64,000 bases of DNA from Pseudonocardia sp. (GTDB taxonomy: Bacteria > Actinomycetota > Actinomycetes > Mycobacteriales > Pseudonocardiaceae): positions 5,335 to 69,334 of the forward strand of contig JBFWRR010000007.1 in NCBI GenBank assembly GCA_050248815.1, in the 5' to 3' direction. This document shows positions 29,009 through 35,702 of the stretch, in pieces. The stretch's first letter is position 1; each line of letters begins with the position of its first letter. The position numbers and the translations under genes were made by a program. Under the pieces are notes generated by a model. That model worked only from the letters and a program-made list of their open reading frames with translations, was not told the origin of the DNA and ran no database searches.

Positions 29009-30055
29009 GTGCGTGAAGCCAGCTTGCGGCTCGCCGCCCTGGTCCGGTGGCGCGTGCCGCCGTGGGGCGGGGACGACGGGCGTGCGACGGGGCCCGGATC
29101 CCGGGCGCCGGGGGCGTCGGTGTCGGCAGAGAGGGTTCGGCCGACGGGTGCTCGGCGCCCACCGGGGAGGTCCGACGGGCGGCCGCCGGAGGGTTCCCGA
29201 CAGCTCGACGGTCCCGGTGCGGATCGGCCCGCGGGTCCGCCGGATGCGCCGGCGGCGGACGGGCCGCGCGACGGTCCCGGTGCGGATCGACCCGCGGGTC
29301 CGCCGGATGCGCCGGCGGCGGACGGGCCGGCGCGGCGCGATCCGCCGACGGTTCCCCTGCCCGTCGTCTCGACCGTCGGGCCTGCGGGCGCGTCCCTGGT
29401 CGGCAGGTTGGGCCGGTGGGTGCGGCGGTTCGTCCCCGCGGGTGCGATCGCGGCCCGCGTGGATCCCGGCAGGCCCGGGGCGACGGCGCTCGCGCTCGTG
29501 GCTGCCGCTGCGGCGCTCGTCGCGGCGGCGGGCGTGTGGCTGGAACGGCCCCGGGCGGAGCCGGTCGACGCGCTGCCTGCCGTCACGGCCGGAGCGCCCA
29601 TCGGGCAGTCCGGTCCGGCGGGGTCGATCGTGGTCAGCGTGACCGGCAAGGTCGCCACACCCGGCCTGGTCACGCTGCCGGACGGGTCGCGGGTCGCGGA
29701 CGCGGTCACCGCTGCGGGCGGGGTGCTGGCGGGGGTCGACCTGACCGGTGTCAATCTCGCCCGGCGCCTCGCCGACGGCGAGCAGGTCGTGGTCGGGGCC
29801 GCCGCTCCCGCCGGGGGTGTCCCGGGATCGGCGGTGCCGGAAGGAGCGGGCTCCGGGCCGGGACCGATCGATCTCAACCTCGCCACGGCCGCCCAGCTCG
29901 ACACGCTGCCGGGGGTCGGGCCGGTCACGGCGGAGCGGATCGTCGAGTGGCGCACACGCAACGGCCCGTTCCGGCGGGTCGAGCAGCTACGTGAGGTGGA
30001 CGGCATCGGGGAGCGGCGGTTCGCGCAGCTGCGAGCGCTGGTGACGGTCTCGTGA
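29009..30055 (+). CDS. comEA: ComEA DNA-binding protein (SLBB plus HhH)
   Basis: VSVTGKVATPGLVTLPDGSRVADA, NLARRLADGEQV, LDTLPGVGPVTA, VDGIG. Confidence 0.93.
   Translation: MREASLRLAALVRWRVPPWGGDDGRATGPGSRAPGASVSAERVRPTGARRPPGRSDGRPPEGSRQLDGPGADRPAGPPDAPAADGPRDGPGADRPAGPPDAPAADGPARRDPPTVPLPVVSTVGPAGASLVGRLGRWVRRFVPAGAIAARVDPGRPGATALALVAAAAALVAAAGVWLERPRAEPVDALPAVTAGAPIGQSGPAGSIVVSVTGKVATPGLVTLPDGSRVADAVTAAGGVLAGVDLTGVNLARRLADGEQVVVGAAAPAGGVPGSAVPEGAGSGPGPIDLNLATAAQLDTLPGVGPVTAERIVEWRTRNGPFRRVEQLREVDGIGERRFAQLRALVTVS
29207..29332. repeat. 63-bp in-frame tandem duplication in the comEA N-terminus
   Basis: GACGGTCCCGGTGCGGATC... starts at 29207 and 29270 (DGPGADRPAGPPDAPAADGP twice). Confidence 0.9.
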
Positions 30056-32976
30056 AGCGATCCTTTCCGCCGGCCCTTCGGGCGGCCGCAGCGCCCGGTG
30101 TGCGGGGCGCGATGGGAAGCCCAGCGGGGCGTGGCGGTGGTGGCGCGAACGCCGGGCCGGGGCGTGACGGTGGTGGCGGCGCCCGGGATCGTCCCGTGCC
30201 CGACGGCGACGTCCCCGAGGTCGCGCCGCCCGACCTCCGGCTCGTTCCCGGTGCCCTCGCGGCCTGGGCAACGGTGCTCGTGGGTCTTGCCGCCGGGTGG
30301 ATCGTGGCGGGCGCCCTGTCGATCGCGGCGGCGGTGGTCGCCGCGGTCGCGGCCGGGGCGCACCGTCCCGGCACCCGCGGGTCCGATCGCCGCGGTGGCG
30401 GGGCGGACCCGCGGGTCTGTAGCGGCGGGATCGAACCCGGAGTGCTCGCCGCCGCGGCCCGGGCACACCGCGCCGCCGACCGGGGACGCGGGCGCGGATC
30501 CCACGGCATCGCGGGGACGGCCCGCGCCCGTCCCGGCCGACCGGGGCTGCTCGCCCGGGCGCTCACCGCCCGCACCGGTGCCGGCGTGCTCGCCGCTGCG
30601 GCGTGCGCGGCTGCTGCCGGCCTGGTCGTCGCGGCGCACGGACTCCTCGTCGCCGTCCACCCGCTCGGGCCCGCTGCCGAGCGGGGCGCCGCGGCGACGC
30701 TGCGCGTGGTGCTCACCGACGATCCGCAACCGGTGCGTGAGGGTGGCTACGGTGCGCAGCCCGCGTCGGCGTCGCGAGTGCTGGTGCGCGCCTCGCTCCG
30801 GGCGGCGGTCGCGGGGGACGGGCAGTGGCGCGCGGGCGGCCGGCTGCTGCTGATCGCCCCTGCCGAGGGCTGGGCGGGCCTGCTGCCGGGCCAGGAGGTC
30901 ACAGCGGAGGGGCTGCTCGCGCCTGCGGGCCGCGCCGACCTCACCGTCGCGGTGCTGCGCGTACGGGGCGAACCGAGGGACGTCACGGCGCCGCCCTGGT
31001 GGCAGACCGGGGCCGGGACACTGCGGGACGGGCTGCGCCGGGCCGCTGGCGTGCTGCCGGAGGCCGAGGCGGGCCTGTTGCCCGGCCTCGCGGTGGGGGA
31101 CACGTCGCGCTCGGTCCCGGAGGTGGAACGCGACTTCCGCACGGCCGGGCTGACGCACCTCACGGCCGTGTCCGGAGCCAACATCGCGATCCTCGCGGGG
31201 GCCGTCCTGGGGCTATTGCGCCTGTTGCGCACCGATCCTCGCTGGGCGGCCGTCGCCGGAGCGCTCGCGGTGGCCGGGTTCGTGCTGCTGGCGCGCCCGT
31301 CGCCGAGCGTGGTCCGGGCCGCCGCGATGGGCGCGGTCGTGCTGCTCGCGCTGGCGCTCGGACGGCGCCGGTCCGCGGTTCCCGCGCTCGCCGCGGCGGT
31401 CGTCGCGCTGCTGCTGATCGATCCGGCGCTCGCCGTCGACCCTGGATTCGCCCTGTCCGTCCTCGCGACCGGGGCGCTCGTGCTCGTCGCCCCGCGCTGG
31501 GTCGCGGCGATACGCGCGCGGGGGGTACCCGCCGGGATCGCGGAGGCGATCGTGGTCCCGGTCGCGGCCCATCTCGCGACGGCACCGGTGATCGCCGGGT
31601 TGAGCGGGGAGATCGGGCTGGTCACCGTCGTGGCGAACCTGCTCGCCGCGCCAGCGGTCGCGCCCGCCACCGTGCTCGGGGTGCTCGCTGCGGTGCTCTC
31701 GCCGCTCGGGGACGCGCCGGCCCGGGTGTGCGCGTGGCTGGCGGGGCCGTCGGTCACCTGGCTGGTGGCGGTCGCGGACCGCGCCGCCGCGGTGCCCGGC
31801 GCGACGCTGCCCTGGCCGGCCGGGATCGGCGGGGGGCTGGCGCTCGCCGCCGTGGTGCTGCTGCTCCTCTACTTCGGGCGGGCACCGCGGCGGCGGGCCC
31901 TGCTGCTCGCCGTCGCCGTGGGGCTCGCGCTGGTGCTCGTGCCCACCCGGGTCGTCCAGCCGGGCTGGCCACCGCCCGGATGGGCCGTGGTGGCCTGCGA
32001 CGTCGGGCAGGGCGACGCCCTCGTGCTGGCGACCGGACGCCCCGGGTGGGTGGTCCTGGTGGACACCGGCCCGGACCCGGGGCCCGTTGATGCCTGCCTG
32101 GACCGGCTCGGCGTGGAGGGGCTCGCGCTGGTGGTGCTGAGCCATCTGCACGCCGACCACGTCGGCGGACTGGCCGGGGCGCTGCGCGGTCGGGCGGTGG
32201 CCGGCGTCGCCGTCGGGTCGGCCCACGAGCCGCGATGGGCGCTGCGGGAGGTCGCGCGGTACGCCGCGGCGGCCGGCGCGCCGCTGGTCGAGCTCACCGC
32301 GGGGCGGCGGCTGGGGTGGCCCGCGCTGACCGTCGACGTCCTTGGGCCCCGCCACGTGCCCGACCTCGTCGATCCCGACGACGGAACGGCCGTCAACGAC
32401 ACCTCGCTCGTGCTGCGGGCGCAGACGCCCGCGGGCAGCGTGCTGCTCACCGGCGACGTTGAGCTCGCCGCCCAGGCGGACCTGCTCGCCGCACCGGCGA
32501 CACTGCCTGCGCTGCGTGCGGACGTGCTCAAGATGCCCCATCACGGAAGCCGCTACACCAGCGCGGAGTTCCTCGCGGCAGTTGCCCCGCGCGCCGTGCT
32601 GGTCAGCGTGGGTGCCGGCAACCGCTACCACCACCCCGACACGCGACTGCTCGACGCCCTCGCCCGCGGCGGTGCGTTGGTGCGGCGCACCGACCAGGCA
32701 GGCGACGTCGCGCTCGCTGTGGGCCCCGGGGGTGCTGGTGGGTCTGGTGGGCCCGGTGGGTCTGGCGGCGCTGGTGGCCCCGGTGGCTTGCTCGTCGTGG
32801 CCCGCGGCGACCCGCTTCCCGCGCCGCGGCGGCGGGCGTCCCGGGCTCGACCGGGTGCGGCACACGTTCCCGGGTACAGGCCTCGCGGCCGGGTTCGCGG
32901 GGGTCCGGTGTATCACGGGTCATGGGCGTGCCTCGCAGGGGTTGCGTCTGCGTCGCAGAGGCTGCAGCCGCTGTGA
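30052..32976 (+). CDS. comEC: ComEC/Rec2 competence protein with C-terminal MBL domain
   Basis: HLTAVSGAN, RAAAMG, CDVGQGD, SHLHADHVGG, TGDVE, HHGS; GTGA overlap with the comEA stop. Confidence 0.92.
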   Translation: MKRSFPPALRAAAAPGVRGAMGSPAGRGGGGANAGPGRDGGGGARDRPVPDGDVPEVAPPDLRLVPGALAAWATVLVGLAAGWIVAGALSIAAAVVAAVAAGAHRPGTRGSDRRGGGADPRVCSGGIEPGVLAAAARAHRAADRGRGRGSHGIAGTARARPGRPGLLARALTARTGAGVLAAAACAAAAGLVVAAHGLLVAVHPLGPAAERGAAATLRVVLTDDPQPVREGGYGAQPASASRVLVRASLRAAVAGDGQWRAGGRLLLIAPAEGWAGLLPGQEVTAEGLLAPAGRADLTVAVLRVRGEPRDVTAPPWWQTGAGTLRDGLRRAAGVLPEAEAGLLPGLAVGDTSRSVPEVERDFRTAGLTHLTAVSGANIAILAGAVLGLLRLLRTDPRWAAVAGALAVAGFVLLARPSPSVVRAAAMGAVVLLALALGRRRSAVPALAAAVVALLLIDPALAVDPGFALSVLATGALVLVAPRWVAAIRARGVPAGIAEAIVVPVAAHLATAPVIAGLSGEIGLVTVVANLLAAPAVAPATVLGVLAAVLSPLGDAPARVCAWLAGPSVTWLVAVADRAAAVPGATLPWPAGIGGGLALAAVVLLLLYFGRAPRRRALLLAVAVGLALVLVPTRVVQPGWPPPGWAVVACDVGQGDALVLATGRPGWVVLVDTGPDPGPVDACLDRLGVEGLALVVLSHLHADHVGGLAGALRGRAVAGVAVGSAHEPRWALREVARYAAAAGAPLVELTAGRRLGWPALTVDVLGPRHVPDLVDPDDGTAVNDTSLVLRAQTPAGSVLLTGDVELAAQADLLAAPATLPALRADVLKMPHHGSRYTSAEFLAAVAPRAVLVSVGAGNRYHHPDTRLLDALARGGALVRRTDQAGDVALAVGPGGAGGSGGPGGSGGAGGPGGLLVVARGDPLPAPRRRASRARPGAAHVPGYRPRGRVRGGPVYHGSWACLAGVASASQRLQPL

Positions 32977-33142
32977 GGCGTGTCCGTCGTCTGCGAGGGG
33001 TAGGGGTGGCCGGTGAGGTCGGGGCGTGCCGCCATGAGCCCGCCGCCGAGCGGTGCACCGCCGTGGGCCGAGCCCCGCTGTCGCGGGGCGCCGCTGTCGT
33101 GGGGCCCGCCGCCGACCGGCGCGCCGCTGCCCGCCGAACGGG

Positions 33143-34423
33143 TCAGCCGCGCCCGGCGAGGGCCTCGCGCACCGCTTTGCTCGTCGATGGCACCGTCGCC
33201 GTCGGGCCGACCTGATCGGACACGGCGTCGAGGGTCTTGAGGCCGTCACCGGTGATGAGCAGCACGGTCTCGGCGTCCGGATCGAGATGGCCCGACGCGA
33301 CGAGCCTGCGGGTGCACGCGACGGTGACCCCGCCCGCGGTCTCGGCGAACACGCCCTCGGTCTGCGCGAGCAGGCGGATGCCCTCGACGACCTGCTCGTC
33401 GCTGACGTGCGCCACCGCACCCCCGGTGCGGCGCACGGCGTCCAGCACGTACGGCCCGTCGGCGGGGTTGCCGATGGCCAGAGAGCGGGCGATGGTGTCG
33501 GGCCGCACGGGCTGGACGACGTCGTGGCCGTCCTCGAAGGCCTTCGCCACCGGCGAGCAGCCGGTGGCCTGTGCGCCGAACACCGTGTACGGGGTGGCGT
33601 CGACGAGGCCGAGCGCGCCCAGCTCCTGGAAGCCCTTGTCGACCTTCGTGAGCTGGGAGCCGGAGGCCACCGGCACCACCACCTGCTCCGGGAGGCGCCA
33701 GCCGAGCTGTTCGGCCACCTCGTAGCCCAGTGTCTTCGAGCCCTCCGCGTAGTAGGGCCGGACGTTGACGTTCACGAACGCCCATTCCTCGTGCTCGGCG
33801 GCGAGTTCGGTGGCGAGGCGGTTGACGTCGTCGTAGTTGCCGTCGACGGCGAGCAGCGTGCCCCCGTAGACCGCGGTGGTGAGGACCTTCGCGCGCTCCA
33901 GCGACGACGGGATGAGGACCACGGAGTCCCAGCCCGCGCGGGCGGCGGCCGCGGCGACGGCGTTGGCGAGGTTGCCGGTGGAGGGACAGCACAGGACGGT
34001 GAAGCCGAGCTCGCGGGCGGCGGCGAGCGCGACGGCGACGACCCGGTCCTTGAAGGAGTGGGTGGGGTTGCCGGTGTCGTCCTTCACCCACAGGTTGCGC
34101 AGGCCGAGGGCGGCACCGAGCCGGTCGGCCTTGATCAGGCGGGTGAGGCCCGGTTCGGTGTTGGGGTGGCGCTGCACGTCCGCGGGGACGGGGAGCAGCT
34201 GCTGGTAGCGCCAGATCGACTTCGGGCCGGTCTCGATGGACTCACGCGTGACGGTGCCGAAGTCGTAGGCGACCTCGAGGGGCCCGAAGCACTGCGGGCA
34301 GGCGAACTCGGCGGCGAGCGGGATCTCGTGGCCGCACTCGCGACAGGACAGGGCGCGGGCCGGACCGAGGTCGAGGGCGGCCGGCGTCGCGGCGGCGGGC
34401 AGGGGGGTATCGGTGAGCGTCAC
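33143..34423 (-). CDS. thrC: Threonine synthase-like PLP enzyme (paralog with N-terminal Zn-ribbon)
   Basis: NPTHSFKDR (PLP Lys), PSTGNLANA, VPVASGS, AETAGG, LITGDGLKT; N-terminal CRECG...CPQC; SD GAGGAG. Confidence 0.88.
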   Translation of the reverse strand: MTLTDTPLPAAATPAALDLGPARALSCRECGHEIPLAAEFACPQCFGPLEVAYDFGTVTRESIETGPKSIWRYQQLLPVPADVQRHPNTEPGLTRLIKADRLGAALGLRNLWVKDDTGNPTHSFKDRVVAVALAAARELGFTVLCCPSTGNLANAVAAAAARAGWDSVVLIPSSLERAKVLTTAVYGGTLLAVDGNYDDVNRLATELAAEHEEWAFVNVNVRPYYAEGSKTLGYEVAEQLGWRLPEQVVVPVASGSQLTKVDKGFQELGALGLVDATPYTVFGAQATGCSPVAKAFEDGHDVVQPVRPDTIARSLAIGNPADGPYVLDAVRRTGGAVAHVSDEQVVEGIRLLAQTEGVFAETAGGVTVACTRRLVASGHLDPDAETVLLITGDGLKTLDAVSDQVGPTATVPSTSKAVREALAGRG

Positions 34424-34433
34424 GGAAGATCTC

Positions 34434-34548
34434 CTCATCTTCCCCGTGGGTCACGGGTCGGAATTGGCACCTGGTTCGCGCACGCGGACACGTGCGACGC
34501 CGGTTGCCGGGGCTTCGTCGGGCCGGTCCCTCTGCCCCTCTGGATGAG
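34434..34548 (-). ncRNA. SAM-I (S-box) riboswitch
   Basis: Minus strand reads CTCATCCAGAGGGGCAGAGGGACCGGCCCGACGAAGCCCCGGCAACC...GGTGCCAATTCC...GAAGATGAG, covering all S-box blocks. The 3' P1 strand overlaps the thrC SD. Confidence 0.95.
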
Positions 34549-34714
34549 CCATATGCGGTTGTGCACCCCGCGAGCCCCCGTGGCCGAACCTGCGTGGCCG
34601 CGGCCGCGGACGAGGCGGGAATGACCAACACGGTACGACACGACGTCGGCTTCTGCCCAGCGGCTCCCCCCGCACATGCGACCTCGCTCACTGCCCGGGT
34701 CCCGGGTCGGCGAC

Positions 34715-34736
34715 TGTCGGGGCGGTGCGCGAGCAT
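34715..34736 (+). promoter_or_regulatory. PafBC/RecA-NDp-like promoter upstream of holA
   Basis: TGTCGG-N10-GAGCAT, then 6 nt to the ATG at 34743. Confidence 0.55.
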
Positions 34737-34742
34737 GGCGAC

Positions 34743-35702
34743 ATGGCGTCCCCGGCACGGCTGCATCTCGTGGTGGGCGAGGAGGAGTTCCTGCTCGAAC
34801 GGGCGGTGGACGCCGTCGTCGGGCAGGTGCGGACGGCCGATCCGGCGGCGGAGCTGCGGCGGTTCCGGACCGCGGAGCTGACGCCGGTCGGCCTCGCGGA
34901 GAGCCTGAGCCCGTCGCTGTTCGCCGAGGCCCGCGTGGTCGTGCTGCTCGCCGCGCACGAGGCAGGCAAGGATCTGACGGCGGCGGTGCTCGGGCACGCG
35001 AGGGACCTGGCCGAGGGGATCGTCCTCGTCGTCGTCCACGCGGGCGGAGCACGCAACAAGGCCCTCGCGGACGGGCTGCGTATAGCCGGCGCGGAGGTCA
35101 CGTCGTGCCCGCAGGTCCGGTGGCCGAACGAGCGGGTGGCCTTCGTGAAGGCCGAGGTCAGACGGCTCGGAGGCCGCCTCGCCTCCGGTTCGGACGAGGC
35201 CCTGGTCGACGCCGTGGGGTCGGACCTGCGGGAGCTGGCCGCCGCCGCGGCGCAGCTCGTCGCGGACACCGGTGGGAAGGTCGACGCCGCCGCGGTGCAC
35301 CGGTACCACCGCGGCCGGGCCGAGGTCCACGGCTGGGACATCGCCGATCTGGCGCTGGCGGGAGACCGCGCGGGTGCGCTCGAGGCGCTGCGATGGGCGC
35401 AGGCGCTCGGGGTGCCGGCGGTGGTACTGGCGGACGCTCTGGCGTCGGGCCTGCGCACCCTCGCGCGGGTGGGCGCCGCGGGCCGGGGGGACCCGAACCG
35501 GCTCGCCGGGCAGCTCGGCATGGCGCCGGGAAAGGTCCGCAGGGCCCAGGCGCAGGTGCGGTCCTGGCACCCGGACGCGCTCGCGGCGGCGTTCCGGGTG
35601 GCCGCGGAGGTGAACGCCGACGTCAAGGGTGCGGCCGCGGACGCCGACTACGCGCTGGAACGGGCGGTGCTGCGGATCTGCGAGGCGCGCGGGAGCCGCT
35701 GA
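34743..35702 (+). CDS. holA: DNA polymerase III delta subunit
   Basis: LHLVVGEEEFL, SPSLF, LVDAVGSDLRELA, DVKG, YALERAV; canonical position before rpsT. Confidence 0.95.
   Translation: MASPARLHLVVGEEEFLLERAVDAVVGQVRTADPAAELRRFRTAELTPVGLAESLSPSLFAEARVVVLLAAHEAGKDLTAAVLGHARDLAEGIVLVVVHAGGARNKALADGLRIAGAEVTSCPQVRWPNERVAFVKAEVRRLGGRLASGSDEALVDAVGSDLRELAAAAAQLVADTGGKVDAAAVHRYHRGRAEVHGWDIADLALAGDRAGALEALRWAQALGVPAVVLADALASGLRTLARVGAAGRGDPNRLAGQLGMAPGKVRRAQAQVRSWHPDALAAAFRVAAEVNADVKGAAADADYALERAVLRICEARGSR

Follow-up and report, generated by a model that had tools for sequence, protein, structure and literature searches.

Why does a gene named for threonine synthesis lie behind a riboswitch for S-adenosylmethionine (SAM)? 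This question was raised by a locus of Pseudonocardia sp. (GenBank assembly GCA_050248815.1), in which a SAM-I (S-box) riboswitch directly precedes a gene of the threonine synthase (ThrC) family. The locus lies in a window of 64,000 nucleotides (contig JBFWRR010000007.1, positions 5,335 to 69,334 of the forward strand), which is the whole stretch of DNA that was analysed; positions below are those of the window unless another contig is named. An initial annotation, made from the sequence alone, regarded the product as a sulfur-incorporating enzyme misnamed thrC, which would convert O-phosphohomoserine to homocysteine or cystathionine. In the present study, the gene was found, on comparison of sequences, to be clearly the Pseudonocardia ortholog of Streptomyces metM, and its product is very probably a SAM-repressed homocysteine synthase of the MetM type. 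The system has already been described in 2024, so that the novelty implied by the initial annotation was not upheld, and the window locus represents a kind of system already known. What is modestly new is that metM stands alone, without the carrier gene metO, throughout Pseudonocardia and in about half of the actinomycete families sampled, which suggests that the carrier CysO is a shared sulfur donor.

Identity of the riboswitch-controlled gene

The pathway was reported by Hasebe, Adachi, Maruyama, and Hamano (2024, Appl Environ Microbiol, doi 10.1128/aem.01247-24), as summarised in PMC12172450 and bioRxiv 10.1101/2024.10.14.618325. According to these two papers, MetM of Streptomyces albulus is a threonine-synthase homolog that converts O-phospho-L-homoserine to homocysteine with MetO-thiocarboxylate (PMC12172450; bioRxiv 10.1101/2024.10.14.618325, Appendix 4). 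They further state that the sulfur is loaded by MoeZ, that the carrier terminus is matured by Mec, and that metM is preceded by a SAM riboswitch and is frequently misannotated as threonine synthase (PMC12172450; bioRxiv 10.1101/2024.10.14.618325).

The window gene occupies positions 33143 to 34423 of the reverse strand and encodes 426 amino acids plus a stop codon, as read from its translation, its matches to the PALP and thrC hidden Markov models (HMMs), and its orthology; databases call the product threonine synthase. The Pfam PALP match reached 232.8 bits, and together with the match to the NCBIfam model TIGR00260 it confirmed the ThrC fold that was first noted; the CxxC...CxxC motif noted with it is present as well. 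The codons of the N-terminal Cys4 zinc ribbon (C27, C30, C42, and C45; motif CxxC-x11-CxxC) lie at 34289 to 34345 on the reverse strand. The ribbon was present in 69 of 69 orthologs, with all four cysteines invariant. Solved ThrC structures aligned to the protein only from residue 67-70 on, leaving an N-terminal extension of about 65 residues uncovered, and a search of the PDB returned no solved MetM structure, the nearest entries being ThrC. The codon of the lysine that binds pyridoxal 5'-phosphate (PLP), K125 in the motif SFKDR, was assigned to 34049 to 34051 (reverse strand), since its column is invariant and is aligned with the lysine of the same motif in Bacillus subtilis ThrC (6cgq). This lysine and the phosphate-binding loop S148-T149-G150-N151 (STGN) were invariant in the ortholog alignment, in which 133 of 426 positions did not vary among the MetM orthologs. 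Identities as cysteate synthase, threonine dehydratase, or serine dehydratase were rejected, the profile scores lying far below the cut-offs.

A search of 201 Actinomycetes genomes found one high-scoring metM ortholog each in 155, about three quarters. The nearest proteins were all from Pseudonocardia, with 84-91% identity. Orthology was tested against the MetM-like protein of a metO-linked Streptomyces locus (L054), which stood in for S. albulus MetM and itself matched proteins from 80 named species of Streptomyces at 87-96% identity; the window protein shared 65.6% identity with it. In that locus metM is followed by a gene for a ThiS-fold carrier of 91-92 amino acids, ending in ...IPAVAGG or ...AVAGGC, and a carrier that ends in a terminal cysteine fits the reported need for Mec. 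In two related genomes, the metM match carried one in-frame TGA (locus L051 in G120 and locus L052 in G075).

The phylogeny relative to canonical ThrC pointed the same way. In a maximum-likelihood tree, all 69 SAM-I-linked actinomycete proteins formed one clade, with a support of 98 in the Shimodaira-Hasegawa-like approximate likelihood ratio test (SH-aLRT), and the ThrC of the genome itself was a very distant outgroup. The 20 Pseudonocardia MetM sequences grouped beside the metO-linked Streptomyces clade. Across the tree, the linked or lone state of metO switched at least four times. No alignment column told lone from metO-linked MetM, so that no trace of a changed function was found in the sequences of lone MetM. 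These results agree with the first proposal that the enzyme leads from O-phosphohomoserine to homocysteine. We infer this product from the orthology and from the logic of SAM control, because an OFF switch makes sense for an enzyme of the methionine branch but would work against a threonine synthase.

Probable control by the SAM-I riboswitch

The leader of metM matched the full covariance model RF00162 (positions 34432 to 34550, reverse strand; 78.7 bits, E 7.6e-17; model positions 1-108), above its gathering score of 44.4, which bears out the full S-box first reported here. A SAM-I riboswitch was located directly upstream of metM in all 69 actinomycete loci, that is, the window locus and 68 orthologous ones. 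In the cmscan alignment, the 5' strand of the P1 helix (CUCAUC) is at 34543 to 34548 and its 3' strand (GAUGAG) at 34434 to 34439, both on the reverse strand. The sequence GCUCAUC was kept in nearly all orthologous metM leaders, and GAUGAG was conserved in them as well.

The Shine-Dalgarno (SD) sequence GAGGAG was read at 34431 to 34436 of the reverse strand, 7 nt before a GTG start codon, and it is the sole plausible SD of metM. Its first three of six bases are part of the 3' strand of P1, so the overlap of P1 with the SD that had been claimed was observed, at an extent of three shared bases. This arrangement of SD, P1, and start codon was common to all 20 Pseudonocardia leaders. The start given by the list of open reading frames, an ATG at 34438, falls within P1; the proteins of 19 congeners begin where the GTG at 34423 sits, with the N-terminus MTLT or MSLL, and this GTG was therefore taken as the start of the 426-residue protein. 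The gap between the end of the aptamer and the GTG is 8 nt. A scan of positions 32900 to 34800 for consensus promoters and terminators found none, although such a scan is uninformative in DNA of 75% G+C. Because the aptamer ends 8 nt from the start, no terminator fits or was found, and P1 holds half of the SD, the leader geometry suggests that metM would be controlled by a translational, SAM-dependent OFF switch.

RNAfold predicted an alternative hairpin at 34424 to 34443 of the reverse strand (GGAAGAU, loop GAGGAG, AUCUUCC), which is mutually exclusive with P1 and would display the SD in its loop. The 7-bp hairpin had a local energy of -9.9 to -12.2 kcal/mol and was included in the minimum-free-energy fold of the whole leader. 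The hairpin fold and the P1-closed fold were nearly isoenergetic (-57.5 versus -56.3 kcal/mol). A conserved anti-sequestering hairpin was rejected as a candidate, since the register with the SD in the loop was predicted in only 8 of the 20 congeners and the others folded in a different register.

The only other SAM-I riboswitch of the genome lies outside the window (C28:60145-60230, forward strand, 54 bits; locus L075). It directly precedes a gene for a 332-residue FAD oxidoreductase of the DAO family (PF01266, 55.6 bits), with the SD GGAGGAG abutting the aptamer. The enzyme is only weakly similar to N-methyltryptophan and sarcosine oxidases and is an unusual gene for SAM control.

Source of the sulfur

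The initial annotation had remarked that no ThiS/MoaD-like carrier gene follows metM, and this was found to be correct: the stop codon of metM is 166 bp from that of comEC, and neither a hidden or overlapping metO nor any other small open reading frame was detected downstream of metM in the window locus or in 19 congeneric loci. A carrier of the MetO clade was also absent from the whole assembly in tblastn searches with four MetO sequences and in a PF02597 profile search, and a MetO-type carrier was not found in 15 other Pseudonocardia genomes either, some of which consist of only two contigs. The PF02597 (ThiS) profile gave four matches in the genome, namely ThiS in a thiO-thiS-thiG cluster, two MoaD-like domains, and a CysO-type gene at C31:6920-7270. 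The four MetO queries hit the last of these alone, with 57-62% identity. The gene stands in the order pncB - (clpS region) - mec - cysO - cysM - rhomboid - murI (locus L001), an arrangement shared with Rv1330c-Rv1338 of Mycobacterium tuberculosis. CysO and CysM are thus encoded in the genome; Mec is encoded beside cysO (Prok-JAB, 78.6 bits), and MoeZ was identified with 767.8 bits against a cut-off of 647 (NF005902). The suggestion that the sulfur is free sulfide or comes from a carrier with its gene at another locus agrees with the presence of a CysO-type carrier, Mec, and MoeZ at other sites of the genome.

Carriers were surveyed in the 63 genomes with a classified metM locus, 24 with metM-metO and 39 with a lone metM. 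All 24 metM-metO genomes had at least two strong genes of the CysO/MetO family, MetO beside metM and another elsewhere, and 33 of the 39 lone-metM genomes had exactly one carrier of this family. Since metO was missing beside metM in 45 of the 69 orthologous loci, its presence is regarded here as a property of the operon rather than of the enzyme family. Each of the 15 unlinked carriers that were fetched is an immediate neighbour of cysM, and for 13 of them mec is nearby as well. A tree of the carriers placed all 24 MetO proteins linked to metM in a single group (SH-aLRT 82), and the carrier of the window genome fell with Pseudonocardia CysO, outside this group.

Several features of these carriers were observed in addition. 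The C31 CysO runs 10 residues (AATTETVAGG) past the canonical ...AVAGG end. In other actinomycete CysO proteins, the tails after Gly-Gly are MA (Streptomyces), AA, R, SGRAT, or 21 residues long (another Pseudonocardia; loci L076-L090), and GGC is the C-terminus of 3 of the 24 MetO proteins. Trimming of carriers at this end, presumably by Mec, seems to be common. One Pseudonocardia genome (G011) has two mec-cysO-cysM clusters (L084 and L085), the second of which is divergent, its CysO being 50% and its CysM 55% identical to the proteins of the window genome.

The following mechanism is proposed. At high SAM, closure of P1 in the aptamer would tie up the 5' half of the ribosome-binding site, and translation of metM would be turned off. 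When MetM is made, ThrB, whose gene adjoins that of the genuine ThrC on another contig, would supply O-phospho-L-homoserine, and the PLP enzyme MetM would replace its phosphate with sulfur to yield L-homocysteine, the precursor of methionine and SAM. CysO, activated by MoeZ and trimmed by Mec, would carry the sulfur to MetM as a thiocarboxylate at its C-terminus. By elimination, we give an even chance that CysO-thiocarboxylate is the sulfur donor of this MetM; no statement that CysO serves as a donor for MetM was found in the literature searched. The wider proposal has a chance slightly short of even: a single ubiquitin-like carrier, CysO, would feed both CysM (with O-phosphoserine) and MetM (with O-phosphohomoserine) in Pseudonocardia and in about half of the actinomycete families sampled, and MetO would be a dedicated paralog of later, single origin, which these lineages have lost or never gained. 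If this is true, one carrier serves the synthesis of both cysteine and methionine.

Several points weigh against this scheme. In the leader, P1 holds just three of the six SD bases, and the register of the alternative hairpin is not conserved across the genus. As for the carrier, the assembly is 91% complete and split into 154 contigs, so that, for this genome taken alone, metO could lie on missing sequence; the 15 other Pseudonocardia genomes, however, lacked a MetO-type carrier as well. In addition, CysO is about 54-64% identical to MetO in lone-metM and metM-metO genomes alike; the idea that CysO is more MetO-like where metM stands alone was rejected, since the identity did not differ between the groups, and it follows that there is no positive sequence signal for a second client of CysO.

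The lone metM poses the question of whether CysO serves a second enzyme or MetM uses sulfide, and the answer would matter for the division of sulfur between cysteine and methionine in actinomycetes. The second possibility, in which the enzyme is a MetM-type homocysteine synthase that in metO-less lineages accepts free sulfide itself, or a different small sulfur donor, with no carrier, is tentative and appears rather unlikely. It would explain why no dedicated carrier is encoded, and the related PLP sulfhydrylases MetY and CysK use sulfide. For Microcystis, Na2S with a MetM-like ThrC gave only an unidentified product (PMC12172450). However, lone and metO-linked MetM could not be told apart by any column, and with 133 of 426 positions invariant this argues for an unchanged mechanism. 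Moreover, CysO was kept in every lone-metM genome examined, and Mec and MoeZ are encoded in the window genome too.

Alternative products

A genuine second threonine synthase, with its amount adjusted by SAM so as to keep the threonine and methionine branches in balance, is very improbable. The protein did pass the TIGR00260 (thrC) model with 276.7 bits against a cut-off of 167.1, and it has kept the STGN motif and the PLP lysine. However, the metO-linked Streptomyces MetM ortholog passed the same model with 270.4 bits, which indicates that TIGR00260 does not separate threonine synthase from MetM. A canonical thrC (TIGR00260, 300 bits) was located beside thrB (TIGR00191, 189.8 bits) on contig C4, between lysA and rho, and its product shares about 34% identity with the window protein. 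The organism thus has its threonine synthase at another locus, and the gene behind the riboswitch does not fill this role; it lies outside any hom-thrC-thrB operon, as had been described, and it is not the sole thrC-like gene, which would have spoken for threonine as the product. In addition, an OFF switch would cut a threonine synthase at high SAM, which is the opposite of branch-point logic; the threonine synthase of plants is activated by SAM. Finally, all 69 orthologs carry SAM-I, and about one third of them are co-transcribed with a sulfur carrier.

Cystathionine, which the initial annotation had offered as the other product and which would arise from O-phosphohomoserine and cysteine, as with plant cystathionine gamma-synthase (CGS), and then require a beta-lyase to give homocysteine, gained no support and is likewise highly improbable: MetB-like and cystathionine-lyase-like enzymes are encoded in the genome, but the fold is of the ThrC/CysM type and not of the Cys/Met-metabolism PLP family that contains CGS, and homocysteine, formed with a protein thiocarboxylate, is the product reported for the characterised ortholog (PMC12172450; bioRxiv 10.1101/2024.10.14.618325).

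Routes to homocysteine

The window genome also encodes MetX (NF047917, 535.8 bits) and a MetY-type sulfhydrylase (TIGR01326, 583.7 bits). Accordingly, the MetM route of this Pseudonocardia is parallel to the conventional MetX/MetY route, as is reported for S. albulus (PMC12172450). Other genomes differed in this respect. With MetX scored as absent when there was no match at E <= 1e-80, 30 of the 63 metM-bearing genomes had neither MetX nor HTS/MetA (including G055, G090, G211, G109, and G063), among them four of the six sampled Streptomyces, and the MetM route may be the only homocysteine route in these 30. Twelve of the 30 belong to the 39 lone-metM genomes, and two of these twelve are single-contig assemblies. 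With both MetX and HTS/MetA missing, these 12 genomes probably depend on MetM alone for homocysteine, even though they have no MetO, and if the carrier is shared as proposed, the shared-carrier route would be the sole homocysteine route there. The naming of the gene is relevant in this context. Sources name close relatives "threonine synthase", and the NCBI thrC model accepts both the window protein and the Streptomyces MetM ortholog; metabolic reconstructions will therefore miss the methionine route.

Gene neighbourhood

The position between comEC and holA that had been assigned to metM was verified by profile matches. The comEC gene (30052 to 32976, forward strand; TIGR00361, 191.6 bits) is convergent with metM, and holA, which encodes the delta subunit of DNA polymerase III (34725 to 35702, forward strand; TIGR01128, 120 bits), is divergent from the riboswitch. 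Among the 19 other Pseudonocardia genomes, holA adjoined metM in every locus, and in 14 comEC lay no more than 1.5 kb beyond metM on its downstream side. In many other actinomycete families, a gene for a cold-shock protein (66-72 amino acids, ...KWFN.EKGYGFI...) was observed within a few hundred bases on the downstream side of metM or metO (L027, L031, L034, L035, L039-L041, L044, L046, L047, L049, L051, L068, L069, L071, and L073); it was not seen there in Pseudonocardia.

Comparison with known systems

The window system resembles MetM/MetO of S. albulus in its orthologous ThrC-family enzyme, its upstream SAM riboswitch, the presence of Mec and MoeZ, and a parallel MetX/MetY route. With the metO-linked MetM of Streptomyces it shares a clade, the invariant Cys4 ribbon, and the PLP site. 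The arrangement is different: the Streptomyces metM is co-transcribed with its dedicated carrier gene metO, whereas the Pseudonocardia metM stands alone between comEC and holA, and its sulfur donor is not specified by the locus.

Canonical ThrC (6cgq, 1uim, and 2d1f) has in common with the window protein the fold family, the substrate O-phosphohomoserine, the PLP lysine, and the STGN phosphate loop. Unlike these enzymes, the window protein has an extra Cys4 extension, is placed under SAM control, and has homocysteine as its inferred product.

A further parallel is the CysM/CysO/Mec/MoeZ system of M. tuberculosis (Rv1334-Rv1336), in which a PLP enzyme makes cysteine from O-phosphoserine and a protein thiocarboxylate. 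CysM differs from MetM in that it is of the CysK/CysM type without a zinc ribbon, with about 29% identity to MetM over 154 residues. The chemistry proposed for MetM is nevertheless like that of CysM/CysO, in that the phosphate of an O-phospho-amino acid would be displaced by a protein thiocarboxylate.

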